A DNA stretch of 64,000 bases from a bacterium (lineage in GTDB: Bacteria; 4484-113): assembly GCA_021163765.1 (NCBI GenBank), contig JAGGTK010000053.1:8017-72016 (forward strand), written 5' to 3'. This document shows positions 6,192 through 48,469 of this stretch, in pieces. The position numbers and the translations under genes were made by a program. Numbering within the stretch: the first letter of the stretch is position 1; every line of letters begins with the position of its first letter. The notes below the pieces were generated by a model. The model was given only the letters and a program-made list of their open reading frames with translations, searched no databases and had not been told where the DNA came from.

Positions 6192-6208
6192 AAAGATATT
6201 GTAGCCCA

Positions 6209-6330
6209 GCGCAGATAGAATGGCGCTTAGTTATCGGAACCTGCTGCTTTCATCGCATAGAGCGCTGCGCCCAGCGCCCAAACCGACGCTGGCTCATCGG
6301 GCACTATGATCTCACAGGCAACCTCTTCGG
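6209..6330 (-). pseudogene. possible gene remnant: C-terminal approx. 40 aa resembling BcrAD/HgdC-type activase (ASKHA ATPase) tail
   Basis: minus-strand translation IIVPDEPASVWALGAALYAMKAAGSDN* with no intact upstream domain; preceded by short out-of-frame ORF MKKGIEITDNRSRPEPMSS*. Confidence 0.3.
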
Positions 6331-6394
6331 CAAGCAGCTCACGAACTCATGGGTTCAGGGCGACTCCTGTTGTCGGTAATCTCGATTCCCTTCT

Positions 6395-7279: not shown

Positions 7280-7285
7280 TATATA

Positions 7286-7295
7286 TAGAATTCTA
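7286..7295. promoter_or_regulatory. perfect 10-bp palindrome TAGAATTCTA (candidate LysR operator) in divergent intergenic region
   Basis: palindrome 7 bp upstream of LysR start; second inverted repeat ATAGTTTCTAT at 7306-7316. Confidence 0.35.
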
Positions 7296-7356
7296 GCATA
7301 ACCATGATAGTTTCTATGAAACAATGCGGATTGCACTGTGCTAATATTCTGGTATC

Positions 7357-9791: not shown

Positions 9792-9863
9792 CCGATTCGC
9801 ACCGATTATAGTCCAAGATAAAGCTAAGACCCCTGCAATCTAGGTATTCAAGAATAGCCGGGT

Positions 9864-10796: not shown

Positions 10797-10884
10797 GCGA
10801 AAGGTTCTCTCACACCCGGATTTCCGCTACAATGGTGGGGGCGCAACGGGCGCTTAGGAGGAAGGTCTGGCACAACGGATTACT

Positions 10885-11736: not shown

Positions 11737-11807
11737 CGGTTAAGGCTCGGCGCGCTGGAGCATTAATACACATTCGTAGCGGTAATTAGGTTTTAGGAGG
11801 AGATACT

Positions 11808-12590: not shown

Positions 12591-12597
12591 CCAGACG

Positions 12598-29703: not shown

Positions 29704-30582
29704 CTACCCGAATCGAACCCGCCGCAAATCGAAGACCGGCCCGTCGCGGCAGACGAGTTTCATTGACTCATACCCAAGACCATCTGTGCGCACAGCGCAA
29801 CCGTAACATGCACCTATTCCGCAGGCCATAACCTCTTCCAGGCTGGCCTCTACGTGAACCGCCTGAGGCAGCATTTCGGCGAGGGCCTTCAGCATGGGCA
29901 CAGGGCCGCACGCGTATACCCGGGTATCTTCAGCCACGCCCTCGGACGCAACCGTCTCGACTATATTCCCGTGAAACCCAAAGCTACCGTCGTCGGTGGC
30001 TGGATGGACTTCTACCGGGAGTTTTGACACGTAATCAAGGGTAAGGTCTCCTGACGTGCTGCCACCGAAGTAAAGGCGGGGACGTGGCAGCTTTGCGGCA
30101 GCAAGTTCTCTGGCCATAAGCAGTAAAGGCGCGACGCCTACGCCGCCAGCCACCAGGACAGTTGGCGTGCCCGGCGGTGGCATCGTGAAAGCGTTGCCAA
30201 GCGGCAATACCCCGCTCAATTGCGCACCAGGAGTGCTATCTGCGAGCCTGCGAGTCTGCTCTCCCACGACCTTAAAGTAGATGTCAAATGAGCCAGCTTC
30301 GACGTCCACGGAGGCAAAGGAAAACGGGCGCCGGAACCTGTAAGGTTCAGATTCGTCACAACGTAACATCATAAATCTCCCCGCGTGCACGTGTTCAAGC
30401 AGGGGGAGGCTCTCATGCGGGACTTTAAGCGTCAACAGGCGAATTTCGCCACCCAGCGACCGGTTTGCGGCAACAGTCAGCTCTGAGAGTGCTTTCACCG
30501 CCGCAGATTTTATCACGGCCAGCCTGTTCCTGATAGGATACGAAGTCACAACAATGGTTGAAAGTCGCAAATCCCGCTGCAC
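29704..30582 (-). CDS. pyrK: dihydroorotate dehydrogenase electron transfer subunit
   Basis: FAD/NAD ferredoxin-reductase fold with C-terminal 2Fe-2S motif CGIGACYGC. Confidence 0.8.
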   Translation of the reverse strand: MQRDLRLSTIVVTSYPIRNRLAVIKSAAVKALSELTVAANRSLGGEIRLLTLKVPHESLPLLEHVHAGRFMMLRCDESEPYRFRRPFSFASVDVEAGSFDIYFKVVGEQTRRLADSTPGAQLSGVLPLGNAFTMPPPGTPTVLVAGGVGVAPLLLMARELAAAKLPRPRLYFGGSTSGDLTLDYVSKLPVEVHPATDDGSFGFHGNIVETVASEGVAEDTRVYACGPVPMLKALAEMLPQAVHVEASLEEVMACGIGACYGCAVRTDGLGYESMKLVCRDGPVFDLRRVRFG

Positions 30583-30588
30583 AGCGAT

Positions 30589-31626
30589 TCAGTTAGCCTT
30601 GGAACCGGGACGTTCCGGGAAATGTCCTTTCGCATACTCGCTGGCGTGCTCCAGCTCATCCACGCGCTTCAGATAGGCAGCATATGTGCTGCTGCCTTCA
30701 GCATCTCGCGCCCTGGTGCAATACGCAATCATGCCACGCGCATAATCCCGGGCATCCTCAAAACGCTTCTCATCAATGAGCTGACGCAAGTAATAATCGT
30801 GACGCCTACACTCCTTCTGCCCTGCCTCAAGCTTCTCACGATGTTCCGTATACGCCGCGTGCTGCTGCTGATAGGACAAGTCCCCGGCGAAGCTGTGCTT
30901 AGCCATTACACTAGAAAGGCGAAGATTGGTTAACATGGTTCCCAGCATGACCCAGCCACCGAATATGGCGGCAATCAGCACTGCTATAGTCACAAGCGAC
31001 TTGAGCGCGCCACTGAAAGCTGTTTCTGAGCTGGAGAAAAGACCCCCAATGACCGGCAGGTCGTCAAGACCGGAAAAGAACTCACCCAGCTTCCGTATGC
31101 GAGGATCGCGCATGCCCATCGCGGAGCCCTTAGGATCCGATAGCGTCATCCCTTCAATCCCGGTGATTAGGCCGTCCTTAAACGTGAACTGGATAGTCTC
31201 GACCCGGTCGACGGCTTGCACTGCTCCGCCCTCTTCTTCCAGCGAGCCAAATATTTCGCTTTCCTCAGCGCCTTCGATACTTGTATCGCTGGCTGCCATT
31301 CCCAACAACCAGTTCCTCTGGAACGCTCCTGATATCTGAATGCCGGCCTCGGAACTTGTTTCCTGAAGCCCCGCCGCTTCAAAGTGATAATCATCACACC
31401 ACTCAAACCACTTCTCAACCCAGCCAGAGAAAGCATTCCGGTCCATCCCTCCGGCTTCGAATTCAGGATGAATTGTGGCTAGGACAGCGCTTGCATCGCC
31501 CGTCACGAAACCGGATGTAAAGCTCCTTACAGCTTCAGCCTCCTTACTAGCCAGCGCAGGCGATCCTGACACTCCTAGGATTACACTGGCAAGAACAGCG
31601 AGTTTCTTCCCGTGTTTGCCGAACAT
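30589..31626 (-). CDS. hypothetical secreted/membrane protein (signal peptide, one C-proximal TM helix)
   Basis: MFGKHGKKLAVLASVILGVSGSPALA signal peptide; TM LVTIAVLIAAIFGGWVMLGTML; no recognised domain. Confidence 0.5.
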   Translation of the reverse strand: MFGKHGKKLAVLASVILGVSGSPALASKEAEAVRSFTSGFVTGDASAVLATIHPEFEAGGMDRNAFSGWVEKWFEWCDDYHFEAAGLQETSSEAGIQISGAFQRNWLLGMAASDTSIEGAEESEIFGSLEEEGGAVQAVDRVETIQFTFKDGLITGIEGMTLSDPKGSAMGMRDPRIRKLGEFFSGLDDLPVIGGLFSSSETAFSGALKSLVTIAVLIAAIFGGWVMLGTMLTNLRLSSVMAKHSFAGDLSYQQQHAAYTEHREKLEAGQKECRRHDYYLRQLIDEKRFEDARDYARGMIAYCTRARDAEGSSTYAAYLKRVDELEHASEYAKGHFPERPGSKAN

Positions 31627-31736
31627 ACATCAAGTATGACTTGAGCGATTTGCTGTGTCAAGATTGAGCCTGGAACTTTTCCTGGCGACGGCAGGGCGGA
31701 ATTCCAAAGGATATTAGTGATTATCCTCACGAAATG

Positions 31737-31765
31737 TTGAAAGCTCTAAACAGGTATGGTATGCT
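31737..31765 (+). promoter_or_regulatory. candidate sigma70-type promoter (TTGAAA -35, 17-nt spacer, TATGCT -10) upstream of OFOR-2/Hdr gene string
   Basis: hexamers at 31737-31742 and 31760-31765 in the divergent intergenic region. Confidence 0.35.
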
Positions 31766-31836
31766 CCTATCAGGTGTAAGGCTCGTGGGCACCGCTGCCT
31801 CGCAGTTGGACGGCGAGGCTAATTCTATCGGAGTGT

Positions 31837-32133
31837 GTGGCTAACGCCGTGAAATATTGGCGAAAACCTTTGGACTTTGATGAGCTCACGATCCCCCACG
31901 GTATCGTGCATATCATCGTTGACCGCTGCAAAGGCTGCGGTTTCTGCGTGGAGTACTGCCCCAAAGGCGTGCTAGAAATGTCGGAGGAGTTTAACGCTAA
32001 GGGCTACCATCCGCCCAAAGTGGTCAAAGAAGGCGAGTGCGTGAACTGCAACCTGTGCGAGATGATATGCCCTGAGTTTGCGATATTCAGCGCCGACGCC
32101 TCCGATAATGGATCGGGCACGCATTCTAAGTAA
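31837..32133 (+). CDS. 2-oxoacid:ferredoxin oxidoreductase delta subunit (second copy)
   Basis: CKGCGFCVEYCP and CVNCNLCEMICP motifs; GTG start. Confidence 0.78.
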   Translation: MANAVKYWRKPLDFDELTIPHGIVHIIVDRCKGCGFCVEYCPKGVLEMSEEFNAKGYHPPKVVKEGECVNCNLCEMICPEFAIFSADASDNGSGTHSK

Positions 32134-32172
32134 TTTTTCTCCTTACAATGGTGAAGTAAAGGAGGACGACCA

Positions 32173-33330
32173 GTGAAAACAGACCCTTCAGGGGTGCTGA
32201 CTGGCCAACATTATCTTGATGGCGACCATGCCTGCGGAGAGGGCGCTATGGCCGCTGGCTGCAGATTCGTTGCCGGCTACCCCATCACTCCTTCAACAGA
32301 AGTCGTAGAGCGCATCTCGCGCAGATTCCCCATGATGGGAGGCACGTTCATCCAGATGGAGGATGAGATGGCCAGCATGGCGGCAATCATTGGCGCATCG
32401 TGGACTGGAACTAAATCAATGACCGTTACCAGTGGCCCCGGATTCTCCCTGATGATGGAGAATATCGGCCTCGCCGCGATGATGGAAACACCATGCGTCA
32501 TTGTGAACGTGCAACGTGGCGGGCCGTCCACGGGGCTACCAACAAATGTAGGCCAAGCGGATATGATGCAGGCGCGATGGGGTTCGCACGGTGACTACGA
32601 AATCATCGCTTTGAGCCCTCAGTCACCACAGGAGGCTTTTGACGTCATGATTGACGCCTTCAATCTCTCGGAGATTTACCGCGTGCCGGTAATGGTCATG
32701 ACGGACGAATGCGTAGGGCATATGACCGAAAAGGTCGTAATCCCCAAGGCTGAAGACATAGAAATAGTGCCACGCAAGCTTACTGATAAGCCGCCAGGCG
32801 AATTCTGGCCTTACGTTGCTGACAGGAACATGATACCGGAATTCGCGCGCGCAGGAGATGGTTACAGGTTCCATAGCACCGGCCTGACGCACAACGAGCG
32901 TGGATATCCGGTAATGAGCGCGGAGTGCCAGCAGGAATGCGTAACCCGGCTGGTAGACAAAATCCGCCTTAACGCTGAAGACATAGTCCGTTTCGAGGAA
33001 GAGGATATTGACGGCGCTGACGTTGTCCTCGTGACTTACGGTATCACCGCGCGTGTTGCGCGACGCGGCATCGATATCGCCAGGAATAAGGGCGTCAAGG
33101 TTGGCGTCATCAGGCTCATTGTTGTATGGCCGTTCCCCGAACGTCACATTCGCGAACTTGCACCCAAGATCAAGGCATTCGTGGTGCCTGAAATCAACTA
33201 CGGACAGATTGTGCTGGAAGTTGAACGCTGTGCGGCCGGGCAGACTCTTACCGTCCTTGTCCCCCATATGGGGGGCACGGTACATGACCCAGAAGACATC
33301 GCAAACGCTATTTTGGAGGCTGCCAAATGA
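32173..33330 (+). CDS. 2-oxoacid:ferredoxin oxidoreductase alpha subunit (second copy)
   Basis: paralogous to 2362..3465 (GYPITPSTEV, GASWTGTKSMT). Confidence 0.88.
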   Translation: MKTDPSGVLTGQHYLDGDHACGEGAMAAGCRFVAGYPITPSTEVVERISRRFPMMGGTFIQMEDEMASMAAIIGASWTGTKSMTVTSGPGFSLMMENIGLAAMMETPCVIVNVQRGGPSTGLPTNVGQADMMQARWGSHGDYEIIALSPQSPQEAFDVMIDAFNLSEIYRVPVMVMTDECVGHMTEKVVIPKAEDIEIVPRKLTDKPPGEFWPYVADRNMIPEFARAGDGYRFHSTGLTHNERGYPVMSAECQQECVTRLVDKIRLNAEDIVRFEEEDIDGADVVLVTYGITARVARRGIDIARNKGVKVGVIRLIVVWPFPERHIRELAPKIKAFVVPEINYGQIVLEVERCAAGQTLTVLVPHMGGTVHDPEDIANAILEAAK

Positions 33331-34307
33331 GCAAGGTCGCGGAGCAAATACCTACAGAAGAAATGGAACACCCAGTAGCGCCGTACTTGCGCATGGATCG
33401 CATCCCGCATATCTGGTGCCCCACCTGCGGCATCGGAACGGTTGTCAGATGCTACGCTGACGCGCTTGAGCATTCCAAAATCGACCTGGACAAGGTGGCT
33501 ATTGTTTCGGGCATTGGGTGCACAGGACGTGTTGCGGGATATATGAGGCTTGATGCCTTTCACACCACCCACGGTCGTGCTATACCGTTTGCAACCGGCC
33601 TGAAGCTGGGCCGGCCTGAGTTGTTGGTTACTGTTTTCTCCGGCGACGGAGACCTGGTTGGCATCGGTGGTAATCACTTCATCCACGCTGCTCGTCGTAA
33701 TCTGGACATACTCGTTATCCTTGTAAACAACTTCATTTATGGAATGACCGGCGGCCAGAACGCTCCAACAACCCCGACGACTGCCAGAACATCTACCATG
33801 CCTTTTGGCAATTTCGAAAGGCCATTCAACCTGCCTCACCTGGCGGAGAGCTGTGGCGCTACATACGTGGCACGCTGGACTAGCCTGCATATTCGCAGGC
33901 TGACCAAGTCGTTCAGAGAGGCGATTAGCCGCAAGGGCTTCCGCTTCGTTGAGGTTATTGCTCCTTGCGCCACTCTGTATGCCCGCCTGAACAAGCTGGG
34001 GACCGGCTTCAACCTGATGCGGTTCTATCACGACAATGCGGTCATTGACCACGGAGCCGATACTCGCGACCTCGACATCAGCTTCCAGGACAGGATTATT
34101 TGTGGGAAGTTCGTGGACAAAGAGCGTCCGACATATAGTGAAATGATGCACGAGCACTATAGAAATGCCCTCGGCGACAAATTCGTGCCTTTACCTGAGG
34201 AAGGTGGAATGATACGCGATACTGGGGAAAAACCAGATTCCAAGGGCAAGAAGCCGGCTAAAAGCCAAAAGCGCAAGGCTTCGGCATCTAAATCCAGTAG
34301 AAAATAA
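33327..34307 (+). CDS. 2-oxoacid:ferredoxin oxidoreductase beta subunit (second copy) with Lys-rich C-terminal tail
   Basis: CPTCGIG, GIGCTGR, TPP-binding GDGD; stop overlaps next start (TAATG). Confidence 0.88.
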
Positions 34308-35539
34308 TGGAAGCGGCGCCAAATAAAAGAGCCCTCGTGATCGGCGGTGGCATCGCAGGCATTCAGGCGGCCTTGGACCTAGCCAACGCTCGCATTCCAG
34401 TAACACTGGTGGAGAAGTCCCCTACCCTGGGTGGGCGAATGGCCCAGCTCGACAAGACGTTCCCCACCATGGATTGCAGCATTTGAATCCTCGGCCCAAG
34501 AATGCTGGATGCCGGTCGGCATCCCCTGATAGATGTGATCTCCAACGCCGAGGTTATCGGTTGCGAAGGCAAGCCAGGTGACTTCAGCGTCCGTGTGCGT
34601 AAAAACAAGCGGTACGTACGGGAAGACCTCTGCGTCGCCTGTGGATTATGCACCGATGCCTGTCCGGTCATCGCGGGCAACGAGTTCGATGTAGGACTGA
34701 AAGCCCGCAAGGCAATCTACCGCCCGTTCCCGCAGTCCGTACCTGCGGCATACGTAATAGACCCTGAGTTCTGCATTAACCTTCTGGGACACCTCAGCGA
34801 GAAGCAAATTCGCAGGTTGGAGAAAATCCAGAAGGTCAAACAGCGCAAGAATCTGGACTACAGCTCCAACATCCTTCCCTGTGGGCACTGTACTGAAGCC
34901 TGCGAAGTCAATGCTATCGACTTTGATATGCAGATAGAGGAAAAGGACCTGAATGTCGGGGCGATATTGGTCGCTGTGGGATTTCAGGAATTCGATGCCC
35001 GCAAGCTGGGCAACTACGGCTACGGCCGCTTCCCTAATGTGGTCACCAGCCTTGAATTAGAGCGGATGCTGAACGCCTCCGGAGTGACCCAGGGCCATGT
35101 CGTGCGGCCGTCCGATATGAAGACCCCAAAGCGGTTAGTGTTTATCCAGTGTGTGGGCGCCCGCGGCGAAGGCGGGCGACCGTATTGCAGCCGCTTTTGC
35201 TGTATGAACGCTGTAAAAGATTCTATGCTGGTGCGGCAGCACGATCCGGAAGTTGAGGATGTCACCATCCTCTATACCGACCTCCGCGCTTTCGGCAAAG
35301 GATTCGACGACTTCGTGCAGCGGTCACGTGACGAAAAGAGCGCCACTTACGTACGAGGACGCCCCGCAAAGGTGGATATCGTTCCTGAGAATGACACGCT
35401 GGAAGTGTTCGTTGAGGACACGCTGGGGCATGAGCAGAAACGCATCCCCGCAGACCTGGTCGTGCTTTCGGTTGCTGCCGCGCCAAACGACGGTGCGGCA
35501 GATCTCTTTGATATCTTAGGGATTAACAGGGTGGAGTAG
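34307..35539 (+). CDS. HdrA-like flavoprotein module 1 (FAD domain + inserted 2x[4Fe-4S] ferredoxin), probable selenoprotein (UGA 34484-34486); ends at in-frame TAG 35537-35539
   Basis: [17 protein letters not shown] motif; [15 protein letters not shown] aligns with conserved DCSMCIL of HdrA; [13 protein letters not shown] and [12 protein letters not shown]; reading frame continues into next ORF. Confidence 0.75.
34507..34524 (+). promoter_or_regulatory. bacterial SECIS-like hairpin GGATGCC-GGTC-GGCATCC starting 20 nt after the UGA codon
   Basis: perfect 7-bp stem with GGUC apical loop (same loop as E. coli fdhF SECIS). Confidence 0.65.
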
Positions 35540-35542
35540 GGT

Positions 35543-37459
35543 TTGGGCCCCGAAGGAATTGCCGAGGCCCCCGCGGGGGAGAGCACCCGCGACGGTATCT
35601 TCGTGTGTGGCAGCGCGGTCGGCCCCCAGATAATTCCTGATTGTGTCGCGCAAGCATCGGCGGTCGCAGCCAGAGCACAACTGTTTTTAACCGGTCATCG
35701 AGTTGAGAAGCACGAGGAGCCCGTTGAGCTCCTGGACGTCACCGGTAAGCCGCGGATAGGAATCCTCGTCTGCCATTGCGGCATTAACATCGCGGGCGTA
35801 TTAGACATTGACGACCTCGTGCAGTACGCAACCGCTTTGCCGGATGTGGTGGCGGCTGCTGGCAGCACATTTGCCTGCTCTACAACAGGGCAGGACGAGC
35901 TGGTAGAGCTGATACGCGAACATAATCTGAATCGCCTTGTCATCGCCGCCTGCACCCCGCGCACTCACGAGCCTATATTCCGCGAAACCTGCACCCACAT
36001 TGGCTTCAACCCATACCTTATCGAGATGGTGAATATCCGTGACCAGTGCTCATGGGTGCATACCGGACAACCCGTCGAGGCGCAGGAAAAGGCACGTACG
36101 CTTATAAGGATGGGTGTTGCCCGGGCCCGGCAACTGGAGCCGCTGTTCGAAGGCGAAGTCCCGATGATGCACTCGGCTCTCGTAATTGGCGGTGGAATCG
36201 CCGGTATCCAGGCTGCAACAGACCTGGCAGTGCAGGGGTTCCCCGTTACGCTCGTTGAAAAGGAAGGGCAACTCGGAGGTCGCCTTGCGAAGCCACACCT
36301 GAAATACCTGTATCCCAATATGCGGCCGGCGACTGAGGTACTGGAAGCAAAACTCAAGCTACTTGAGGAAAGCGGCGCCAGAGTCCTGCTTAACACTGAT
36401 GTTGAGAGCATTACCGGATATGTGGGCAACTTCGAGGCTAATCTGACAGGGGAAACTGAAGAGCTCCTCCAGGTTGGCGCCATTATTTTAGCTGTCGGGG
36501 CGGATCTCTACGATCCTGAGGAAGAATATGGCTATTCGAAGTTTCCCAACGTAATCACAAGCCAAGAGCTGGAAACGATGCTGGTGGAGGACGACAAGAA
36601 CGTCGAGATTGCCGGCAGCCGTCCCAGGAGCGCGTCCTTTGTGCTGTGCGTTGGGTCGCGGGATCCGGAGCATTTCCCCGGCTGTTCGCGCTACTGCTGC
36701 CCTACCGCGATAAAGCAAGCTATCCTGCTGCGACGCATGGGGATGGATATAACCATCTTCTACCGCGATATCCGCACGATTTCGACCGGTGCGGAGGAAA
36801 TGTACCGCGAGGCCAGAGGTTTGGGAGTTCTGTTCATCCGGATCCCTGAAGGCGACAAAGTCCAGGTAAGCGGGACAGACCACGCTGAATCGGTGCGATG
36901 CTTCGACGACCTTCTCGGCCGACACCTCGAAGTGCCCACTGACCTGGTCGTGTTAAGCGTGGGCATGCAGCCCAAGCAACCTGAAACATCAAAGTTCCAT
37001 GACATCCTGAAGGTTAGCGTCGGGCTTGACGGCTTCTTCATGGAGCTGCACCCGGAGCTCGGCCCGGTGGAAACCCCCGTGGAGGGCGTGCTTCTTGCGG
37101 GAACGGCTCAGGGGCCGAAAGATATTGTGGATACCGTCGCCCAAGCTTCCGCTGCCGCTGCGAAGGCCTCTATATTCCTGGCGCATGACACCGTTAGCCT
37201 CAATCCAGCGGTATCTGAGGTGATTGAGGAAAAATGCCGGGGCTGCGGCACCTGCGCGGAAATCTGCGAATTCCATGCACCCGCACTCGTCGAGATCGAG
37301 CCTGGCACCTTCGTCGCGCGTATCAACGCCAGTCTTTGCAAGGGTTGCGGCACGTGCACCAGTTGGTGCCCCTCCGGCGCGATTGTCTCCAAGCATTTCA
37401 CCGACCGGCAGGTCCACGCGATGATTGATGCTCTGTTCACAACTGAAACATCGAAATGA
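35543..37459 (+). CDS. HdrA-like flavoprotein module 2, preceded in-frame by the C-terminal FAD-domain strands of module 1
   Basis: first approx. 50 aa (DGIFVCGSAVGPQIIPDCVAQASAVAA) complete module-1 FAD domain; then HdrA N-domain GILVCHCGINIAG, FAD motif [15 protein letters not shown]-terminal CRGCGTCAEICE/CKGCGTCTSWCP; TTG start with GGTGGAG RBS if TAG is a real stop. Confidence 0.7.
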   Translation: MGPEGIAEAPAGESTRDGIFVCGSAVGPQIIPDCVAQASAVAARAQLFLTGHRVEKHEEPVELLDVTGKPRIGILVCHCGINIAGVLDIDDLVQYATALPDVVAAAGSTFACSTTGQDELVELIREHNLNRLVIAACTPRTHEPIFRETCTHIGFNPYLIEMVNIRDQCSWVHTGQPVEAQEKARTLIRMGVARARQLEPLFEGEVPMMHSALVIGGGIAGIQAATDLAVQGFPVTLVEKEGQLGGRLAKPHLKYLYPNMRPATEVLEAKLKLLEESGARVLLNTDVESITGYVGNFEANLTGETEELLQVGAIILAVGADLYDPEEEYGYSKFPNVITSQELETMLVEDDKNVEIAGSRPRSASFVLCVGSRDPEHFPGCSRYCCPTAIKQAILLRRMGMDITIFYRDIRTISTGAEEMYREARGLGVLFIRIPEGDKVQVSGTDHAESVRCFDDLLGRHLEVPTDLVVLSVGMQPKQPETSKFHDILKVSVGLDGFFMELHPELGPVETPVEGVLLAGTAQGPKDIVDTVAQASAAAAKASIFLAHDTVSLNPAVSEVIEEKCRGCGTCAEICEFHAPALVEIEPGTFVARINASLCKGCGTCTSWCPSGAIVSKHFTDRQVHAMIDALFTTETSK

Positions 37460-37920
37460 CTCCGACCAAAACCAAACGCAAGGCAAAGTCCGGTTCCACA
37501 AAGTGGAACCCCAACATCGTGGTTTTTGCGTGCAACTGGTGTTCATACGCGGGTGCGGATACCGCCGGAGTTTCGCGAATCCAGCATGAACCGCACTTCA
37601 GGATGATCCGCGTAATGTGCTCCGGTCGCATCCAGCCAGGCTTCGTTCTCAAGGCTTTTGAGAGGGGAGCGGACGGCGTTCTGGTCTCTGGCTGCCACAT
37701 CGGCGACTGCCACTACATCTTTGGAAACGAGCGCGCACTGGAGCAGTTCGAGAAGACTAAGAATATGGTCAGGCTCCTCGGCCTGGAGGAAGGGCGGCTT
37801 CGTTTGGAATGGATAAGCGCCGCTGAGGGCGCACGATTTGCCGAGGTTATCAACGATTTCACTGCCCAGGTGCGGAAACTGGGGCCGAGCCCACTCAACA
37901 CCGGCAATGGGGAACGCTAA
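37456..37920 (+). CDS. methyl-viologen-reducing hydrogenase delta subunit homolog (MvhD/FlpD)
   Basis: VVFACNWCSYAGAD and VSGCHIGDCHY motifs; start overlaps upstream stop (ATGA). Confidence 0.85.
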   Translation: MTPTKTKRKAKSGSTKWNPNIVVFACNWCSYAGADTAGVSRIQHEPHFRMIRVMCSGRIQPGFVLKAFERGADGVLVSGCHIGDCHYIFGNERALEQFEKTKNMVRLLGLEEGRLRLEWISAAEGARFAEVINDFTAQVRKLGPSPLNTGNGER

Positions 37921-37926
37921 AGGGAT

Positions 37927-39087
37927 ATGAAAACGACTTCAACCCCTGAAATTGCGGAAATCGCCGATAAGGCCAGAGCGTGGGCCTGCTACGACTGCGG
38001 GAAATGCACGGCGACCTGCCCCATTGCCCGGGTTGGCGGCGCTCTCAGCCCCCGGCGGCAGGTGCTGGCAGCCAATCTCGGTCACCGCGAGGACATTATT
38101 ACCAATAATGCCCTTTTCGCCTGTCTTACCTGCGGGTTGTGCAGCTCACGTTGCCCTGCCGGAGTGGTTTACTGCGAGCTGGTTCTAAACCTGCGCCAGC
38201 TCGCATTCCACGACGGCGTTGAGCCTGAGTGCCCGCACGGCGGCGCACTTCAATCAATGATGCGAATGATGGCCAAGGGTAAAACAAAGCAAGACCGCCT
38301 AAGCTGGCTGACCAAAGATTTGAAGGTTCAGCACAAGAAGGGAGATGTTTTCTACTGGACCGGTTGCACGATGTACTACGATGCGTTCTTCCCCGACTTC
38401 AATATCACGACTCTGGACGCTACACGGGCTGCCATTCGCGTACTGAACCGACTGGGCGTGACGCCGGTAGTTTCACCGGACGAGCGATGCTGCGGGCATG
38501 ACCTTCTGTGGAACGGTGACCGGGCGAATTTTGAGCTCCTCGCAAGGCATAACGTTAAACTCGTTGAATCCAGCGGCGCAAAAACGCTTGTCATCTCCTG
38601 TGCTGAGTGCCTGCGAACATGGAATATCGACTACCAGCCATTCTTTGAGACTAGCCCTCCAAAGATTATGCATATAACCGAGTTTATGCAAGAAAATCTG
38701 GATAATCTGAAGTTCAAAGCCAACAAGGAGCATACGGTCACTTATCAGGACCCCTGCCGGCTGGGCAGGCACCTAGGGATCTTCGATCCGCCGCGCGCTA
38801 TACTAGAAGCACTGCCTGATATCACCCTGGCGGAAATGCCCCGCTCCGGAAAAAACTCCATATGCTGCGCTGGGGGGACTTGGTCTAACTGCGACCGCTA
38901 CGCCAAGCACATCCAGGTAGACCGCCTGCGCGAGGCAAAGTCAACAGGTGCTGAGTTCCTTGTTACGTCCTGCCCTAAATGCCAGATACATTTCGCATGC
39001 GCTATGAAAGACCCGAATTTACACGAGGAGATTGAAATCCCGATGCGCGATATCGCCACGCTGGTTGCAGACGCGCTGGCGGATTGA
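37927..39087 (+). CDS. HdrD-like subunit (HdrC-type 4Fe-4S dicluster domain fused to HdrB-type double CCG domain)
   Basis: CYDCGKCTATCP and CLTCGLCSSRCP; CCG motifs ERCCGHD and SICCAGG. Confidence 0.82.
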   Translation: MKTTSTPEIAEIADKARAWACYDCGKCTATCPIARVGGALSPRRQVLAANLGHREDIITNNALFACLTCGLCSSRCPAGVVYCELVLNLRQLAFHDGVEPECPHGGALQSMMRMMAKGKTKQDRLSWLTKDLKVQHKKGDVFYWTGCTMYYDAFFPDFNITTLDATRAAIRVLNRLGVTPVVSPDERCCGHDLLWNGDRANFELLARHNVKLVESSGAKTLVISCAECLRTWNIDYQPFFETSPPKIMHITEFMQENLDNLKFKANKEHTVTYQDPCRLGRHLGIFDPPRAILEALPDITLAEMPRSGKNSICCAGGTWSNCDRYAKHIQVDRLREAKSTGAEFLVTSCPKCQIHFACAMKDPNLHEEIEIPMRDIATLVADALAD

Positions 39088-39131
39088 CCCAATAATGATG
39101 AATTTGATGGAACCTGTAGGGACTCTCTCAA

Positions 39132-41597
39132 ATGGGAGGAGAATTAATGGACAGTGACCCGAAAGGTGACGGACTGCGAGTAGGCGTCTTCGTATGTGAT
39201 TGCGGCCTTAACATCGCGGGGACGGTCGACACCCAGGCAGTGACAGATTACGCGGCAACTCTTCCAGACGTCGTGTGCGCCATCCGGAACCGCTACACCT
39301 GTGCTGATCCGGGGCAGAACGAAATCAAGAAAGCCATTGCCGAGCACCGCCTGAACCGAGTAGTTATCGCTTCCTGCACCCCGTTACAGCACGAGCCCAC
39401 ATTCCGGACCTGCGTCGCTGAGGCAGGCCTTAATCGTTACCTCATGGAAATGGCCAACCTGAGGGAACAATGCTCCTGGGTACATCCCAGCGACATGGAG
39501 GGCGCTACCAGAAAGGCGAAAGACCTGGTAGCAGGCGCAGTGGCACGGGCACGAAATCTGCAGCCGCATGACGACCTGTCGGTTCCTGTCACCAAGCGCG
39601 CGCTTGTCATCGGGGGAGGTATAGCCGGCATGGAAGCTGCGCTCGAGCTGGCCGACTCGGGGCATCAAGTGGTACTGGTTGAAAAGGAGGCATCCATCGG
39701 TGGGATTATGGCTCAACTGGACAAAACATACCCCACCATGGATTGCTCCATATGAATTCTCGGCCCTAAGGCCATAGATGTCGGTCGACATCCAAACATA
39801 GAACTCCTAACCTACAGCGAGGTAGTGAATGTATCGGGCTACATCGGTAACTTTACGGCGGAAATCCGCCGGAAGGCGCGCTATGTGGACCCGGAGGCAT
39901 GCACCGCATGTGCGGAGTGCGCCCAGGTGTGCCCGGTGGTGAAACCCGACGAGTATCAGATGGGGCTATCCTCCCGGAAAGCCATCTACATTCCCTACCC
40001 CCAGGCGGTGCCATCCTCCTACATCCTTAATATGGAAGATTGCCTGGGAACCAATCCCATCGCCTGTGGAAAGTGTGCCGAAGTATGCGAGCCGGACTGT
40101 ATCAATTATGATGACCGCGACATAATCGTCAAGCGTGATGTGGGTGCGGTAATCGTGGCAATCGGCGCTGACGTGTATGACCCCACCGAGATGGATGAAT
40201 ACGGCTACACGCGCTTCGACAATGTGATCACTTCCATGGAATTCGAGCGCCTAATATGCGCTGGTGGGCCGACGCTGGGCCACTTTGTGCGACCGAGTGA
40301 CCATGAGCGTCCGAAGCGCATCGGCTTCATACAATGTGTTGGATCCCGAAATCCTAGCATTGGGAGGCCCTACTGCTCCAATATCTGCTGCATGAACACC
40401 ATCAAGGACACTCTCCTGTTGGCTGACCATTACCCGGACGTAGAGTGCACCGTGTTTTACCAGGACATTAGAGCTTTCGGGAAGTCGTTTGAGGACATGT
40501 TCCAGCGCTCTAAGGAGGCTGGCACCCGTTATATCAGAGGAATACCGGGTGATATTGAAGAGGATACTGAAACCGGCAACCTCACCCTCATAGCAGAAAA
40601 CACCACTAGCGGCAAGATAGAGCGTCATGAGTTTGACATGGTTATCCTATCCGTTGGGGTCGGACCGCCCAAGGATCTTGCTAAAATCTCCAGTCTGCTA
40701 ACACTCTCCAAGACCTCGGATGGCTTCTTCATGGAGTCCCATCCGAAACTGAAGCCTGTTGATGCCCCCACGCGCGGAGTTTTCTTCTCTGGCTTTTGCG
40801 AATCCCCCAAAGACATCAAGGATTCTGTATGTCAGGCCGGTGCAGCTGCTTCACGCGCTGGCGCGCTGCTTAACGCGGGCCAGGTCCATATTGAGGCGAT
40901 TACCAGCGTGATTGACGCGGATGCCTGCAAGAAGTGCGGTGTATGTGCGAGCGTTTGCCCCTATGGCGCAATCACATGGAAGAAGGGCGAAGTGGCCGTT
41001 GTCATCGACGCCGCGTGCGCGGGCTGCGGAAACTGCGGCGCCGCCTGCAAATTCGACGCGATTACGATGCGCCACTTCACAGACGCGCAGTATATGGCTC
41101 AGATTCGCGCCATCCTGGCCGAAGACCCGCAGGACAAAGTCTTCGTGTTTGCGTGTAACTGGTGCTCATACAGCGGCGCGGATATGGCTGGCATTTCACG
41201 AATGCAATATCCGGCCTCCAATCGAATCGTAAGGACTATGTGCTCAGCGCGTGTCTCCGAGGATATGGTGCTTGAAGCGTTCCGTTGCGGCGCACCGGTG
41301 GTTCTCGTTTCCGGCTGCCATTACGCTGACTGCCACTATATCACTGCAAACAGGCAAACCGTTCAGCGCGTCCAGCGCCTGTGGAACAAGCTGGAGAAAG
41401 CCGGTGTCAGGCCGGAACGGCTGCAGCTCGAGTGGATTAGCGCCGCCGAGGGCCAGAAGTTCGCCAAGGTGATGGCCCAGATGGAGGAATTGCGAAAAAC
41501 GGTGACGGAGGAGGAAATCGAGTACACGATTGAGGCTCTAAAGCCAAAACCCAGGAAGCCTAAGAAGGAGAAGGAAGCTGCCGCAGTGGCCGGGTAG
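39132..41597 (+). CDS. HdrA-MvhD fusion flavoprotein, probable selenoprotein (in-frame UGA 39753-39755)
   Basis: single frame through 39132..39755 and 39825..41597; N-domain VFVCDCGLNIAG; [14 protein letters not shown]; YPTMDCSI-TGA-ILGP; inserted and C-terminal ferredoxin motifs; C-terminal MvhD domain (VFVFACNWCSYSGAD, VSGCHYADCHY). Confidence 0.78.
39777..39792 (+). promoter_or_regulatory. bacterial SECIS-like hairpin GATGTC-GGTC-GACATC starting 21 nt after the UGA codon
   Basis: perfect 6-bp stem with GGUC loop; same spacing and loop as the element at 34507. Confidence 0.65.
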
Positions 41598-41621
41598 CGG
41601 CTGACGGCCCGGAGGTCTCAT

Positions 41622-41798
41622 ATGGCAACAATGGAGAACTTCAAATGTATGTTGTGCGGTCACGAGTACCAGGAACTCGTTGAAGAAGGCGAGGACAAGG
41701 AACGCTCCTGTCCCAAGTGCCGTTCCAACAGCATTCGACATCTTAAGAAACGCGCCTCGCAGGGTGATTCCGATGACAAAGGCAAGAAAACCGAATAA
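41622..41798 (+). CDS. FmdB-family zinc-ribbon protein (58 aa), below the 60-aa ORF-track threshold
   Basis: MATMENFKCMLCGHEYQELVEEGEDKERSCPKCRS (CxxC-n17-CxxC); GGAGG RBS 6 nt upstream; overlaps hdrC start by 26 nt in another frame. Confidence 0.6.
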   Translation: MATMENFKCMLCGHEYQELVEEGEDKERSCPKCRSNSIRHLKKRASQGDSDDKGKKTE

Positions 41799-42294
41799 CG
41801 ACGATGTCGTAAAGGTAGACTTCGACTTCAGGCGCCAGCTCGCCAAGAAAGTCGAGGGCAACCTGGCCAGCTTTTGTTATCAGTGCGGGGCCTGCGTGGG
41901 CGATTGCCCTGCCGCAACCTACAGTGACGAGTTCAACCCCCGGGAGATAATGCTCAAAGTGTTATACGGACTTGGCGAGGAACTGCTGGTGGAGAACTCA
42001 GTATTGTGGCAGTGCACCAACTGCTACAACTGCGCAGAGCGATGCCCCCAGGACGTTAAGCCGGTCGAGGTCATCATCTCGCTGAAGAATATGCTCGCGG
42101 ACCTGAATATCTATCCCCCTACCGTGGAAAAGATCATCGGCACATTTGAGAAAACCGGCCGTACAACTCCCCTAAGCCCTGCGGTGGACCGGCAGCGCGA
42201 GCGGTTTGGGCTGCCACCGATGAAGCCTGTCCCCATGGACGAGATCAGCAAGCTTCTTGAGCCTGCATCCGATGAGGAGGATGATGCAGAGTGA
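41773..42294 (+). CDS. hdrC: heterodisulfide reductase subunit C-like (2x[4Fe-4S])
   Basis: CYQCGACVGDCP and CTNCYNCAERCP; likely start ATG 41773 (ORF open from 41680). Confidence 0.8.
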   Translation: MTKARKPNNDDVVKVDFDFRRQLAKKVEGNLASFCYQCGACVGDCPAATYSDEFNPREIMLKVLYGLGEELLVENSVLWQCTNCYNCAERCPQDVKPVEVIISLKNMLADLNIYPPTVEKIIGTFEKTGRTTPLSPAVDRQRERFGLPPMKPVPMDEISKLLEPASDEEDDAE

Positions 42295-43181
42295 AGCCCT
42301 TTGCATTTTTCCCCGGCTGCCTGATTCCTGTTCGCTATCCGGCGATGGAGTTCGCCATCCGCCAGACCTTGCCCAAGCTGGGCATCGAAATAGTTGACCT
42401 TGAAGGCGCGTCCTGCTGCCCTGACCCAATCTACTTCAAGTCCAAGGACAAGGTCGCGTGGCTCTCCGTTGCTGCGCGCAACCTTACGCTGGCCGAAGAT
42501 CTGGGCCTAGATGTGTTCACTAACTGCTCCGGTTGCACTGCAACGCTTTCGGAGGCTTACCACCTTCTGAAGAACGACGAACTCAGAGAAAAGGTCAACA
42601 GGCGACTTAAAAAGATTGGCCGCAAGTACAAGGGCACGAGCAGAGTCCGGCACGTTGCGACCCTTGTTCGTGATGAAGCAGGCTACGACGCGGTGCGTGA
42701 ATCGGTCGTGCGCCCGCTGGACGGTATGAAAATGGCCATTCACTACGGCTGCCACCTGCTGAAGCCGAGCAAGATTATGAACGTAGACGACCCCAACAAC
42801 CCTGAAGTCCTGGAAAAAATGGTAGAAGCTATTGGCGCCACTCCGGTGCGCCATCGCAACTGGTATCTCTGTTGCGGAAAGGCCTGCCAGCATGAGGCTA
42901 TTCCCCTGAATATGATGCATGCCCTGCTGGGCACGGTGAAGGACGTGGAAGCGGAAATCCTGTGCCTAATCTGTCCAACCTGCTTCAGCCAATTCGATCA
43001 CGGCCAGATGAAGGTCGCCAAGCACTTCAACGACGATTACCACATCCCGCCGGTATACTACTTCCAATTGCTAGCTTACGCACAGGGCATTCCCTATGAT
43101 AAGCTTGGGTTTGACCGCCAGCGGTTCAAGCCTGAAAGCCTGCAACGCTTTGCAACCTCATCGGCACAGGTGGAAAATTGA
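42291..43181 (+). CDS. hdrB: heterodisulfide reductase subunit B-like (two CCG domains)
   Basis: GASCCPDP and YLCCGKAC CCG motifs; GTG start overlapping hdrC stop (GTGA). Confidence 0.82.
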   Translation: MKPFAFFPGCLIPVRYPAMEFAIRQTLPKLGIEIVDLEGASCCPDPIYFKSKDKVAWLSVAARNLTLAEDLGLDVFTNCSGCTATLSEAYHLLKNDELREKVNRRLKKIGRKYKGTSRVRHVATLVRDEAGYDAVRESVVRPLDGMKMAIHYGCHLLKPSKIMNVDDPNNPEVLEKMVEAIGATPVRHRNWYLCCGKACQHEAIPLNMMHALLGTVKDVEAEILCLICPTCFSQFDHGQMKVAKHFNDDYHIPPVYYFQLLAYAQGIPYDKLGFDRQRFKPESLQRFATSSAQVEN

Positions 43182-43215
43182 TCAGTGATATCTGTCAATC
43201 CTGGAGAGTAACGAA

Positions 43216-43776
43216 ATGAGCACTACTGAACTTCGAGTCAGCGGCTTTGGCGGCCAGGGCGTGATTCTCTGCGCCTATATCATCGGCCGCGCTGCGGCGC
43301 TACATGACGGGAGACATGCCACGCTTACCCAGAGCTTTGGCCCTGAGGCCCGCGGCAGCGCGTGTAGCGCCCAGGTAATCCTGTCCGATGACCCTGTTCT
43401 ATATCCGTACGTGCAGCATCAGAATGCCCTTGTCTGCATGTCCCAAGAGGCTTATGACAAGTTCGAGCCGGAGACAGACACCGACGGCATCCTGCTTTAC
43501 GAGGAGGAGCTTGTCACGCCCCACGAACCGCGCGCCGACATGAAAGTGTACGGTATTCCAGCCACCCGAATCGCTGAGGAACTCGGGCGAATAATCGTGG
43601 TTAATATCGTGATGCTCGGCTTCTTTACAGCGACTACAGGTCTGCTCCCAATGGAGGCGGCCCGCAAAGCGGTTGAAGAATCTGTTCCTGAAGGCACCGA
43701 GAAACTCAACCTGGCCGCTTTCGACCGTGGCTATGAATACGGAATTAAGCTGGTTGAAGAAAAAGCAGCGAAGTGA
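43216..43776 (+). CDS. 2-oxoacid:ferredoxin oxidoreductase gamma subunit (second copy, separated from D-A-B by the Hdr module)
   Basis: VSGFGGQGVIL gamma-family motif, paralog of 4289..4852. Confidence 0.85.
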   Translation: MSTTELRVSGFGGQGVILCAYIIGRAAALHDGRHATLTQSFGPEARGSACSAQVILSDDPVLYPYVQHQNALVCMSQEAYDKFEPETDTDGILLYEEELVTPHEPRADMKVYGIPATRIAEELGRIIVVNIVMLGFFTATTGLLPMEAARKAVEESVPEGTEKLNLAAFDRGYEYGIKLVEEKAAK

Positions 43777-43846
43777 ACAAATCAGCTATCCGTTTTTATA
43801 GTTGACGCTGGCGGAATCCCTAAGCCTCTATGCTATTCTAGATTAC

Positions 43847-44692
43847 ATGCCACAGAAGGTTACCAGGCTGTCCGCTACGAAAATATCCACTTTCGAACAG
43901 TGTGCTAAATACTATGAGTTTCAGTATGTGCACCGGGCCAAAAGGTCGTTCACGCCCATCGAATGGGAAGTTGGCAGCATTGTCCACGATATTATCGCCA
44001 GGCTGTTCAGGCAAATCAGGGATAAGCAACGTGGCACAATCCCCAAGCTCGGCAATGCGGAATGGTACCGCCCGCTTCTGGCCGACGCCACCTCGAATCT
44101 GCGGAACCAGGTAGACGAGGGAATTGTGCGCATTGTTAGGCCCGATGAAAGGATGCAATCATACGAGGAGCAGATGGACAACGCGCTAGGCACGTTCACT
44201 GCCAAGGCCCTGCCCTTGCTTCATGACCACAAGATTGTGGGCGTGGAAGCAGACCTAGGGCGGTTTAATCTGGATGGGATTCAGATAGATGGACGACTTG
44301 ACCTTATAACTCAATCTGGCGGCAACCTTTACGTGCACGACTGGAAGACCGGCGGTCGCCGCGACGAGGATGCGCGCCAGGCTAAAATATACTACTTCGC
44401 ATCCAAGGACAAGTACCGCCAACCAGCTACGACATTCACGCTCTACTACCTGGCAGAAGCAGGTGATATCGTCACATCTTATACCTTCAGCCAGGAACAG
44501 CGGGCGCTGCTTAGCGCCGAGATTGCTGACATCGCTGCGCGGATAAACGCTCTTGAAACATATCAGGCCCGAGTTTCGGTCTTATGCCACTGGTGCCCCT
44601 ACGGGCCCCAATGCGACGAAGGAAACGCGTATATGTCCGCCCATCCTCCACCAGTGAAGAAAGACCAGATAGACCTGGGCCTGGTAACGTGA
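43847..44692 (+). CDS. Cas4-like / RecB-family PD-(D/E)xK nuclease with Fe-S cysteine cluster (no adjacent cas genes)
   Basis: N-terminal Cys (FEQCAKYY), DGRLDLI..LYVHDWKTG core, C-terminal CHWCPYGPQC (CX2CX5C); ATG 43847 preferred over 43802. Confidence 0.65.
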   Translation: MPQKVTRLSATKISTFEQCAKYYEFQYVHRAKRSFTPIEWEVGSIVHDIIARLFRQIRDKQRGTIPKLGNAEWYRPLLADATSNLRNQVDEGIVRIVRPDERMQSYEEQMDNALGTFTAKALPLLHDHKIVGVEADLGRFNLDGIQIDGRLDLITQSGGNLYVHDWKTGGRRDEDARQAKIYYFASKDKYRQPATTFTLYYLAEAGDIVTSYTFSQEQRALLSAEIADIAARINALETYQARVSVLCHWCPYGPQCDEGNAYMSAHPPPVKKDQIDLGLVT

Positions 44693-44693
44693 G

Positions 44694-45620
44694 TTACGCT
44701 GGCTGGCTCACCAGGTAGTTAAAACTGTGAGCCTCGGTGATGGGATGGCTGAAGCTACGGCTTCTACGGTTCATTGCCTCGAGCATCTTTCCCAGTCCTT
44801 TTAGCATCGCAACGTCACGCACAATGAGAAGCCATAGGTGCATATGCTGGCAATGGCTAAGAAACTCGCTCATCCAGTCGATGTAGTCATCCTCGCTATC
44901 GAAATGGGAGCCGAAGAAATATCCCGAAGGCAGGATACCAGGCAGACTGAACTGCTCATTTACCAATACTTCGCGCACCTGAATAAAAGGCGGCAGCGCC
45001 CCGTAACCTTGCGCAGGGGGGACATCTACGATAAGTACACGCGCCGCTATGTTCTCAAGGGTTTCCCGGTCAATACGCTGATAGGATTCATTAACCTCAC
45101 GATTCGATCTGAAGGGTCGCTTTATTTCGCGCAGGTAGAATCTCACAGCTTCAGACAAACGAAGTCCTCGGTCATTCGGGCCGCTATTTATGAGGTAATA
45201 CTTGGCCAGGTGCCACAGGAAGTAATGCAGCGTTGCGCGATGGTAACGCGTACGGTCGAAAACTGGGAGCTTCTTAATCTCTCTTTCATACTCGCAGAAT
45301 CCAGATGGAAGCATAACGCCGTTACGCTTTACCGCTTCGCTCTGCGACGCGTCAAAGTCCATTACGTCAGCCAGCTGCTGAATCCGCCTCAAATCGACGT
45401 TTGAGAGGAGGAACCTGTCATTCTCTATCAGCGCCAAATCGTACTCGTAAGCCCCCGGTAACACGGTATTGGTGATGACACGAACCCGGAAGTTGCGTTT
45501 GATGAACTGCTCGGTGTTTCCCACAACAGTATTTAGATAGACGACGTTGGTGTGGCGGTAGAATCTCAGCGTATCGCTGAAGAAATGCGGGAACGTCGCA
45601 AACTCAATAGAGTTGCACAT
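44694..45620 (-). CDS. hypothetical protein (308 aa), convergent with and abutting the nuclease gene
   Basis: long ORF without recognisable motifs apart from a VDVPPAQGYG segment. Confidence 0.45.
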   Translation of the reverse strand: MCNSIEFATFPHFFSDTLRFYRHTNVVYLNTVVGNTEQFIKRNFRVRVITNTVLPGAYEYDLALIENDRFLLSNVDLRRIQQLADVMDFDASQSEAVKRNGVMLPSGFCEYEREIKKLPVFDRTRYHRATLHYFLWHLAKYYLINSGPNDRGLRLSEAVRFYLREIKRPFRSNREVNESYQRIDRETLENIAARVLIVDVPPAQGYGALPPFIQVREVLVNEQFSLPGILPSGYFFGSHFDSEDDYIDWMSEFLSHCQHMHLWLLIVRDVAMLKGLGKMLEAMNRRSRSFSHPITEAHSFNYLVSQPA

Positions 45621-46894: not shown

Positions 46895-48469
46895 TTAGTT
46901 CTCCTCCACCGCTGCCATGCAAACTCGATTGCGCCCGCTGCGCTTGGCCTTATAGAGCGCCTTGTCCGCCATCTCCACGAGGCTGTTTCTGTTAACAGCC
47001 ATCTGCGGGAAAAGCGCAACACCCACACTGACAGTCACCGGCAACTTCAAGCCGTTGTATTCGAAATCGTGCTCCTCAACGAGTGACCTGATCTTCTCGC
47101 CAACCACCAGCGTCACGTCATAGTCAGCCTGCGGGATGATGATTGCAAACTCCTCCCCGCCGTACCGTGAAATGATTTCAGTCGCGCGCAAGCCTTCATT
47201 TAGCACCTTGCAGAGCTCCACGAGCACATAGTCGCCGACCTGATGCCCGTACGAGTCGTTTATCTGTTTAAAATGGTCGATATCGACCATAGCCAGCCCG
47301 ACCGAATGGCTGTAGCGCGACGCCCTCGTGAGCTCTATCTCCATGAATGTCTCGAACTGGCGCCGGTTATTTACCCCTGTGAGAGGGTCAGTTGTGGCCA
47401 TTTCCTTCAGCCGGTTCGTAAGAATAACATTCCCCACTATCTGGCGCAGCGTTCCTCCGAAAGTGGTCAGAAACCTGAAGTCCTCCTCTGTGAAGTCTGG
47501 CGGGTCGGTACGGTTCACAAATATAAGACCGTAATTCTCATCGTCAATATGGAGGTCGTAAGTCATATACGAGTGAGCCGCGCAGATCTTGGTCAGCGGG
47601 TTATCGAGGTCGAAATCAAGGATACGCTGGACCTTGGGGGTCGGTGGGTTAGCGTGGAAGCGCGGATAGTAATCCTCCAGCATCTCGTTTATCTCGCGCT
47701 CCTTGTGCTGGACACCCCAGTAAAAGCCTTGCTTTATGACGCTTTCAAAAGCGCTCAGCACCTGTGGGTCCAGGCTGGGATGCATTTTTTCTCCAAATAT
47801 CTCAAGAATATGTGCGGGTTCCTGCCTTGTACGCTCCTGCCCGCTAAGCTTGCTGTAGATCACGCGGAAGAACTGCGAGTGGAAAAAAGCCACACCGTCA
47901 TCGGCTTGCAGAATCGTCATTAGCTTCGCCAGAAGCCTCTCCGGAATCTGTGCATCCCGCACGAGATTCGATTCGCTCATCTGCGACACTTGTCCCAGCA
48001 GTGAGAGTTCCTCAACCTGCCTGAAGAGAACGTTCTCCTGAAGACGCATGTAATCCTGAAAGAGCTTGACCCGCACTTCGTCACTCGTGAACTTCAGGTA
48101 AGTCTCCTCTACTAAGTCACGAGACCTCTCCGGGCTGGGGTTCGCGGTTACGTATTCCACAAGCGTAATGAAGGTGTGCTCCCCGAGAAGCGACACTTCA
48201 TTTATTCGTAGCTGCAAATGCAGGTTCCTTGTAGCGAGCCGTATTAGCGTTAGCAGGAAATAGCCAAGGTCTCCTTCTCCCAGTGATTTAACCGCGGATG
48301 AGACCAATTGGCGAAGCACTCTGATTGATTCCTCTTTCTCCAAAAACTCCAGCAACTCACCGCAACGCTGGCAGATTTGTTCGGTTATTTCCCCCTCATG
48401 GGTCTTGAGATGAAGCGCTACCTCCAGGCGTTCATCGCGTCCAAATGTAGCTATTTCAACAGCAGTCAT
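46895..48469 (-). CDS. GGDEF-domain diguanylate cyclase with N-terminal sensory region
   Basis: DPLTGVNNRRQFE and RYGGEEFAII (GGEEF) motifs. Confidence 0.82.
   Translation of the reverse strand: MTAVEIATFGRDERLEVALHLKTHEGEITEQICQRCGELLEFLEKEESIRVLRQLVSSAVKSLGEGDLGYFLLTLIRLATRNLHLQLRINEVSLLGEHTFITLVEYVTANPSPERSRDLVEETYLKFTSDEVRVKLFQDYMRLQENVLFRQVEELSLLGQVSQMSESNLVRDAQIPERLLAKLMTILQADDGVAFFHSQFFRVIYSKLSGQERTRQEPAHILEIFGEKMHPSLDPQVLSAFESVIKQGFYWGVQHKEREINEMLEDYYPRFHANPPTPKVQRILDFDLDNPLTKICAAHSYMTYDLHIDDENYGLIFVNRTDPPDFTEEDFRFLTTFGGTLRQIVGNVILTNRLKEMATTDPLTGVNNRRQFETFMEIELTRASRYSHSVGLAMVDIDHFKQINDSYGHQVGDYVLVELCKVLNEGLRATEIISRYGGEEFAIIIPQADYDVTLVVGEKIRSLVEEHDFEYNGLKLPVTVSVGVALFPQMAVNRNSLVEMADKALYKAKRSGRNRVCMAAVEEN

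Follow-up and report, generated by a model that had tools for sequence, protein, structure and literature searches.

An in-frame TAG in a tandem HdrA-HdrA selenoprotein gene of an uncultured Planctomycetota-like bacterium is probably an error in the deposited consensus

Bacterial selenoproteins are known to include the HdrA family, fused hdrA-hdrA genes among them (Zhang et al. 2006, Genome Biol 7:R94, PMC1794560). In the fused genes of Deltaproteobacteria (PMC1794560), two HdrA units stand in tandem and selenocysteine (Sec) occupies the Cys-aligned position of a DCS-x-U/C motif. The gene described here shares both features. It lies in a 64,000-nt stretch of DNA, called the window below, from an uncultured Planctomycetota-like bacterium. 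As in known Hdr systems (PMC1794560; PDB 5ODC), an MvhD/FlpD gene and an HdrB/C-like CCG-domain gene are found downstream of the HdrA gene. Unlike the deltaproteobacterial fusions, the present version occurs in Planctomycetota, Acidobacteriota, Gemmatimonadota and other metagenome-assembled genomes (MAGs), and its neighbors encode subunits of a 2-oxoacid:ferredoxin oxidoreductase. The underlying biology is genuine and not new in kind: a widespread Sec-containing tandem HdrA is linked to MvhD, HdrBC-like and 2-oxoacid:ferredoxin oxidoreductase genes across several uncultured phyla. The source species is absent from the GTDB representative genomes, and its best match there is the Planctomycetales MAG CSMAG_2248 (93% amino-acid identity).

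The copy of this gene in the window is interrupted by an in-frame TAG, and two further phenomena described in the literature are relevant to it. The pyrrolysine genes mtmB, mtbB and mttB also carry an in-frame TAG within a conserved domain, and this is the only feature they have in common with the present gene. Here the TAG is unconserved, the ancestral codon encodes Tyr, the protein family is unrelated, and the window contains no pyl genes. The second phenomenon is technical. Illumina sequence-specific error produces runs of consecutive miscalls of ~40 nt in one read direction (Nakamura et al. 2011, NAR 39:e90, PMC3141275). Between 49 and 64% of these miscalls equal the preceding base, and GGC motifs and inverted repeats trigger them (PMC3141275).

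The product of the gene has the attributes of an HdrA-type flavoprotein: an FAD Rossmann GxGxxG motif, a thioredoxin-reductase-like fold, 4Fe-4S ferredoxin domains and homology to 5ODC_A, the solved HdrA of the methanogen Hdr-Mvh complex (PDB 5ODC). Pfam identified NAD_binding_8, FAD_oxidored, Pyr_redox_2 and Fer4 domains in the HdrA-HdrA product, and phmmer matched it to 5ODC_A with E = 1e-163, covering three domains. Unlike the methanogen protein, module 1 here is without the canonical N-terminal domain. The reading unit at 34307–37459 holds two in-frame stops, a normal Sec TGA and an aberrant TAG (Table 1).

ATG 34307 opens a 59-codon FAD-Rossmann segment that is in frame with the TAG and ends at the Sec TGA. 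A second Sec site in the operon, TGA 39753–39755, is followed by a hairpin (39777–39792) with the identical GGUC loop and the identical 28-nt spacing as the hairpin downstream of the first. Judged by shape and position, both hairpins are putative SECIS elements. Because the module-1 TGA is retained in frame in 77 of 78 related genomes, is aligned with Cys, has a hairpin downstream and belongs to a known HdrA selenoprotein family, we consider it genuine recoding and the gene a bacterial selenoprotein HdrA. The TAG has none of the hallmarks of recoding that the TGA displays.

Table 1. Features of the tandem HdrA-HdrA locus (positions within the window).
Feature	Position	Strand	Basis or remark
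Tandem HdrA-HdrA flavoprotein gene, 1050 codons	34307..37459	+	translation, Pfam, match to 5ODC_A, at least 120 orthologs
Sec TGA of HdrA module 1, context ...TMDCSI-U-ILGP	34484..34486	+	aligns with Cys of solved HdrA
SECIS-like hairpin GGAUGCC-GGUC-GGCAUCC (putative)	34507..34524	+	RNA fold; first loop G 28 nt after UGA
Private patch, 21 substitutions, no indel	35525..35578	+	comparison with otherwise identical same-population contigs
Apparent Shine-Dalgarno GGTGGAG (35530-35536) and TTG start (35543-35545)	35530..35545	+	created by substitutions at 35532, 35533 and 35545
TAG	35537..35539	+	C>G at 35539; same-population contigs have TAC (Tyr)

The TAG is the in-frame end of a 345-aa ORF (34502–35539). 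The next ORF (35543–37459, 638 aa, TTG start) shares its frame, with one GGT codon between the two, and the NCBI annotation (PGAP) gives the gene as two CDSs, MCD6282770.1 and MCD6282771.1. An earlier note on this DNA had described the TAG as in frame with the ORF that follows, and the ORF coordinates and translation confirm this arrangement. The ~50 residues after the TAG, which the note took for the C-terminal strands of the module-1 FAD domain, indeed align with residues ~510–560 of 5ODC_A. In the same alignment the break falls inside the FAD domain, immediately before a conserved STRDG-IFVCG motif. Other particulars of the note were right only in part. It had placed the TAG at the G of DGFF; the motif is correct, but the residue opposite the TAG is the D of DGFF/DQFF in canonical HdrA modules and a conserved Tyr (YGF) in the true orthologs. 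The Shine-Dalgarno-like GGTGGAG is present, but it lies 6 nt, not 5 nt, ahead of TTG 35543. Similarly, the expected read-through product of ~1050 aa has the right length, but only provided that the in-frame TGA is read as well.

The earlier note had proposed looking for a sense codon at this position in orthologous loci. At least 120 orthologs of the read-through product turned up in a protein search; they are 70–92% identical to it, mostly ~984 aa long, and cover 97–100% of the query (87% in one case). All 120 orthologous proteins listed are continuous through the TAG site, and opposite the TAG 111 of them have Tyr, 4 Asn, 4 His and 1 Gln. Among species-representative genomes, 78 loci were found, spread over Planctomycetota/Phycisphaerae, Acidobacteriota, Gemmatimonadota, Latescibacterota, Zixibacteria and other MAGs. 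At the TAG position, 53 of these genomes have TAC, 9 CAC, 8 TAT, 7 AAC and 1 AAT. The position is thus sense in 78/78 genomes and 120/120 listed proteins, with neither a stop nor a gene split at the site in either set.

Contigs from the same population were found by exact look-up of neighboring window proteins in at least four other assemblies. Their sources are JGI 3300016457 (several contigs), ENA ERZ23499370 scaffold_21 (177 kb) and Logan SRR14000038. The window is 100% identical to other-assembly contigs over 6937–29741 and near-identical over 1–13465 and 27927–64000. All four contigs that span the site (L003, L004, L005 and L006) carry the intact TAC allele. L005 and L006 are metagenome contigs of strains 98–99% identical to the window, and we found them with a degenerate pattern that fits either allele or any intermediate. 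This pattern had no match in the representative genomes, and its metagenome matches were all intact, with neither the patch nor an intermediate among them. The gene is called as a single 985-aa protein in the JGI, ENA and Logan contigs, and a cluster look-up traced this intact protein to 5 contigs of three sources, but the 345-aa and 638-aa fragments to one NCBI contig only, of 73,450 nt, in a MAG that is evidently where the window comes from. The earlier note had named evidence of a sense codon as a ground for refutation, and the near-identical contigs of other assemblies, with their TAC, supply it.

Comparison with the intact allele also shows that the TAG does not stand alone. It is one product of the 54-nt patch listed in Table 1, which gives rise together to the stop codon, the TTG "restart" and the Shine-Dalgarno-like GGTGGAG; the corresponding stretch of the intact allele reads GGATGAG TAC GGA TTC. 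Across the patch the protein reads NRVE*GLGPEGIAEAPAG, compared to D(T/K)D.YGF(I/V)ARRD.A(I/V)SAV in the orthologs. The 17 residues around the TAG are aberrant as a group, a feature overlooked in the earlier note, and the TAG is therefore not a single nonsense change within a conserved stretch. Indeed, 13 of the 18 patch codons give a residue found in 0/120 listed orthologs, the invariant F, D and S being among the positions affected.

We also compared the window with the closest orthologous loci, L001 (85% nucleotide identity) and L002 (77%), which both have the same gene order. Over the 12 kb of synteny, window-specific substitutions cluster most strongly where the TAG lies: a 51-nt interval there has 18 of them, against a mean of 3.0 (sd 2.2). 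Relative to these loci at 77–85% identity, changes elsewhere in the gene fall mostly at third codon positions (24/13/121 at first, second and third positions), whereas those in the patch are spread evenly (6/9/8).

These comparisons bear directly on the proposal that the gene is naturally split, so that module 1 would terminate at the TAG, a new round of translation would begin at TTG 35543 via GGTGGAG and the two polypeptides would rebuild the FAD domain. The position of the Shine-Dalgarno-like sequence 6 nt before an in-frame TTG and the two CDSs of the PGAP annotation agree with such a split, but neither start signal exists in the population's intact allele, and both are therefore by-products of the patch. 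In a natural gene fission, orthologs are split alike and have conserved start signals; here not one of the 78 genomes or 120 listed orthologous proteins is split at the site. Furthermore, the amino-acid replacements around the break are non-conservative and affect even the invariant F, D and S, and the break itself lies within the FAD domain just ahead of the STRDG-IFVCG motif. We consider a functional split, which the earlier note had listed among its options, to be contradicted by these data and very improbable.

Programmed recoding of the TAG, whether by pyrrolysine insertion or by stimulated read-through to a full-length double HdrA, receives almost no credence from us. The organism does recode UGA as Sec twice within the operon, and the G+C-rich patch folds at -27.7 kcal/mol directly 3' of the UAG. 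However, this fold is no better than that of shuffled sequences (z = -0.77), each of the 198 relatives examined has a sense codon here, the same-population contigs have TAC, and even with read-through 13 conserved residues would be destroyed. A stimulatory RNA structure 3' of the UAG was rejected on the same grounds, since shuffles fold equally well and an Rfam search of 30000–45000 gave no match. TAG is, in addition, the commonest ordinary stop among the 52 called genes of the window (TAG 19, TAA 17, TGA 16). No tRNA was found in the 64-kb window, and its called genes include neither a pyl gene nor a methylamine methyltransferase family. The pyl-gene question is in any case moot, given the Tyr codon of the same population and of relatives from several phyla. 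Pyrrolysine proteins are recognized by a TAG conserved among orthologs, which is seen here in 0/78 genomes and 0/120 listed proteins, and programmed read-through by a conserved stop followed by significant downstream structure, neither of which is found. The suggestions of read-through and of pyrrolysine in the earlier note thus fail, the former on the unconserved stop and the unremarkable downstream fold, the latter on the ancestral Tyr codon, the ordinary use of TAG and the missing pyl genes in the 64 kb. As a candidate recoding or fission feature, the TAG is not real.

The substitutions themselves point to how the patch arose. The new base matches the 3' neighbor in the reference at 19 of the 21 sites (binomial P for at least 19/21 = 8e-8) and the 5' neighbor at the remaining 2. 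Mean homopolymer run length in the patch rises from 1.20 in the reference to 1.96 in the window. The patch is private, non-conservative and marked by neighbor copying. It also has the characteristics of dephasing errors: its mismatches are clustered, repeat the previous base when read in one direction, and come with 0 indels. Like Illumina sequence-specific error (PMC3141275), it is a run of tens of bases without indels in which the base mostly repeats the preceding one (here 19/21, as a minus-strand read would see it). Unlike the phenomenon of Nakamura et al. 2011, which was seen in reads, it would have been fixed in an assembled consensus, and, in a further departure from sequence-specific error (PMC3141275), the run stops cleanly after 54 nt. 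Read on the minus strand, the patch is closely preceded by GGC motifs and a CCGTCGCGG quasi-palindrome, such motifs being common at 56% G+C. Dephasing errors usually continue to the read end. The sequence on both sides of the patch is perfect, and embedding such errors there would take something more, for instance gap filling or the overlap of reads.

An error is the most likely explanation, and a private gene-killing lesion a less likely one, because the TAG lies within a 21-substitution patch unique to one MAG. From the sequence comparisons we conclude that the TAG and the patch are probably of technical origin, an error carried into the consensus of the deposited MAG. The error most plausibly consists of dephasing-type miscalls that entered at low coverage or during gap filling; here we infer both the sequencing platform and the assembly step. 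In such a scheme, minus-strand sequencing-by-synthesis reads would undergo lagging-strand dephasing, and each miscall would repeat the base of the previous cycle, which is the 3' neighbor on the plus strand. The dephased reads would keep their length and so produce no indels. They would become the consensus at low coverage or during gap filling, and gene callers would then split the gene at the resulting TAG. On this explanation the organism's own gene would encode a continuous ~1050-aa selenoprotein, two HdrA units in tandem, and have a Tyr codon (TAC) in place of the TAG, and NCBI would be annotating two truncated proteins because the deposited MAG is privately corrupted at the patch. "A recent nonsense mutation or sequencing error" was among the options of the earlier note, and this option gains support, but as a patch of 21 substitutions rather than one nonsense mutation.

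These results call for caution with similar candidates, as an in-frame TAG beside genuine Sec recoding mimics a pyrrolysine or read-through candidate, and it is the population comparison that reveals the private corruption of the MAG. The neighbor-copy test likewise offers a cheap flag for dephasing-type consensus errors that can be applied without reads.

The neighbor-copy pattern is also what one kind of real mutational event would leave. A single error-prone repair-synthesis event could have rewritten 54 bp in one lineage, recently inactivating or splitting hdrA-hdrA, although we regard this as unlikely. One candidate process is dislocation (template-slippage) misincorporation, in which the next template base is copied and the strands then realign. 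Transient-misalignment mutagenesis of this kind, known as Kunkel-type dislocation and associated with Y-family polymerases, predicts substitutions that copy a neighbor. The further private SNPs of the window, which mark a distinct strain, are compatible with a real lesion as well. The remainder of the gene and the operon are untouched, and any inactivation would therefore be very recent. Nevertheless, we know of no bacterial process with a substitution density of ~40% over 54 bp without an indel. The allele is also missing from every other assembly of the population, and the paired, length-preserving character of the changes is a better fit to a cycle-synchronous sequencing artefact. That neighbor-templated (dislocation-type) hypermutation acted in vivo, in one event and in one strain, and left hdrA-hdrA freshly split or dead is accordingly a doubtful proposition. 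If true, it would provide a natural case of mutations clustered at extreme density, with length preserved and with a clear signature of their mechanism.

Several other origins were considered and rejected. A compensated frameshift was suggested by the -1 frame, which reads VGFGPRRN against YGFVARRD in orthologs, but the DNA aligns without gaps to the same-population contigs, and the shifted-frame matches arise because of the neighbor-copy substitutions. For a small inversion or a donor copy elsewhere, as in gene conversion or template switching, a second copy of the patch was sought, and none was present on either strand of the window with up to 3 mismatches. The repeats near the patch are only short ones at chance level. 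Mutagenesis of the DGR type was likewise dismissed, as the patch substitutions arise from all four bases and not from A alone.

Beyond the patch, the window differs privately from the same-population contigs at 831, 4950/4971/4978, 47141–47146, 61960 and 62015. Those at 831, 61960 and 62015 are single SNPs, 4950–4978 holds 3 changes, and 47141–47146 holds 4 transitions that change TV to AI next to the GGEEF motif in a diguanylate cyclase. None of these differences has the neighbor-copy signature (4978 matches its neighbors only trivially), and the source is therefore a slightly different strain.

The HdrA-HdrA gene lies in a conserved operon whose gene order is common to the relatives examined, namely the closest orthologous loci (L001 and L002) and two contigs carrying the intact TAC allele (L003 and L004). 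It opens with ferredoxin, the alpha and beta subunits of 2-oxoacid:ferredoxin oxidoreductase, HdrA-HdrA(Sec) and MvhD/FlpD, continues with an HdrB/C-like CCG protein, an HdrA(Sec)-MvhD fusion and a small Zn-ribbon ORF, and ends with HdrC-like, HdrB-like and oxidoreductase gamma genes. The operon is a candidate for encoding a flavin-based electron-bifurcating complex that is coupled to the oxidation of oxoacids. In a comparison with PDB 5ODC_A, the first module of the HdrA-HdrA fusion (34307-37459) has no counterpart of the canonical HdrA N-terminal domain and begins directly with the FAD Rossmann fold. The only segment homologous to that domain lies between the modules, where it forms the start of module 2.

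The window contains two genuine selenocysteine sites. Downstream of each UGA is a hairpin of 6-7 bp capped by a GGUC loop, and the spacing is identical: at both sites the first G of the loop lies 28 nt past the UGA. Across related genomes from several phyla, the module 1 TGA is kept in 77 of 78.

Coordinates of features in the window
Feature	Position	Details
Operon	31837-43776	conserved
Sec UGA, HdrA module 1	34484-34486	hairpin 34507-34524
Sec UGA, third HdrA(-MvhD) gene	39753-39755	hairpin 39777-39792
GGDEF gene	46895-48469	minus strand; contains window-private changes 47141-47146
L005 divergent tract	37412-37524 (matching positions)	hdrA-hdrA/mvhD junction
L092 divergent tract	1807-1890 (matching positions)	
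Remaining window-private differences vs sibling contigs	831; 4950, 4971, 4978; 61960, 62015	

Within the GGDEF gene, four window-private transitions fall in 6 nt (AACCGT>GATTGC) and turn RYGGEEF-TV-II into RYGGEEF-AI-II; the other allele is present in all five of the sibling contigs. These transitions do not show the neighbour-copy signature, in which the new base equals the reference's 3' neighbour, and no donor copy for the tract was found within the window. Other private differences relative to the sibling contigs include K29R in the hibernation-factor gene and, where a radical-SAM gene has its 3' end, three transversions within 29 nt. These other differences show that the window comes from a slightly different strain or consensus.

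Sibling strains also have divergent tracts of their own. The tract in L005, a metagenome contig of a closely related strain, is indel-containing and yields a 1006-aa variant. That in L092, the locus of another sibling strain, consists of six transitions spaced mostly by multiples of 3 nt and looks like a recombination import.
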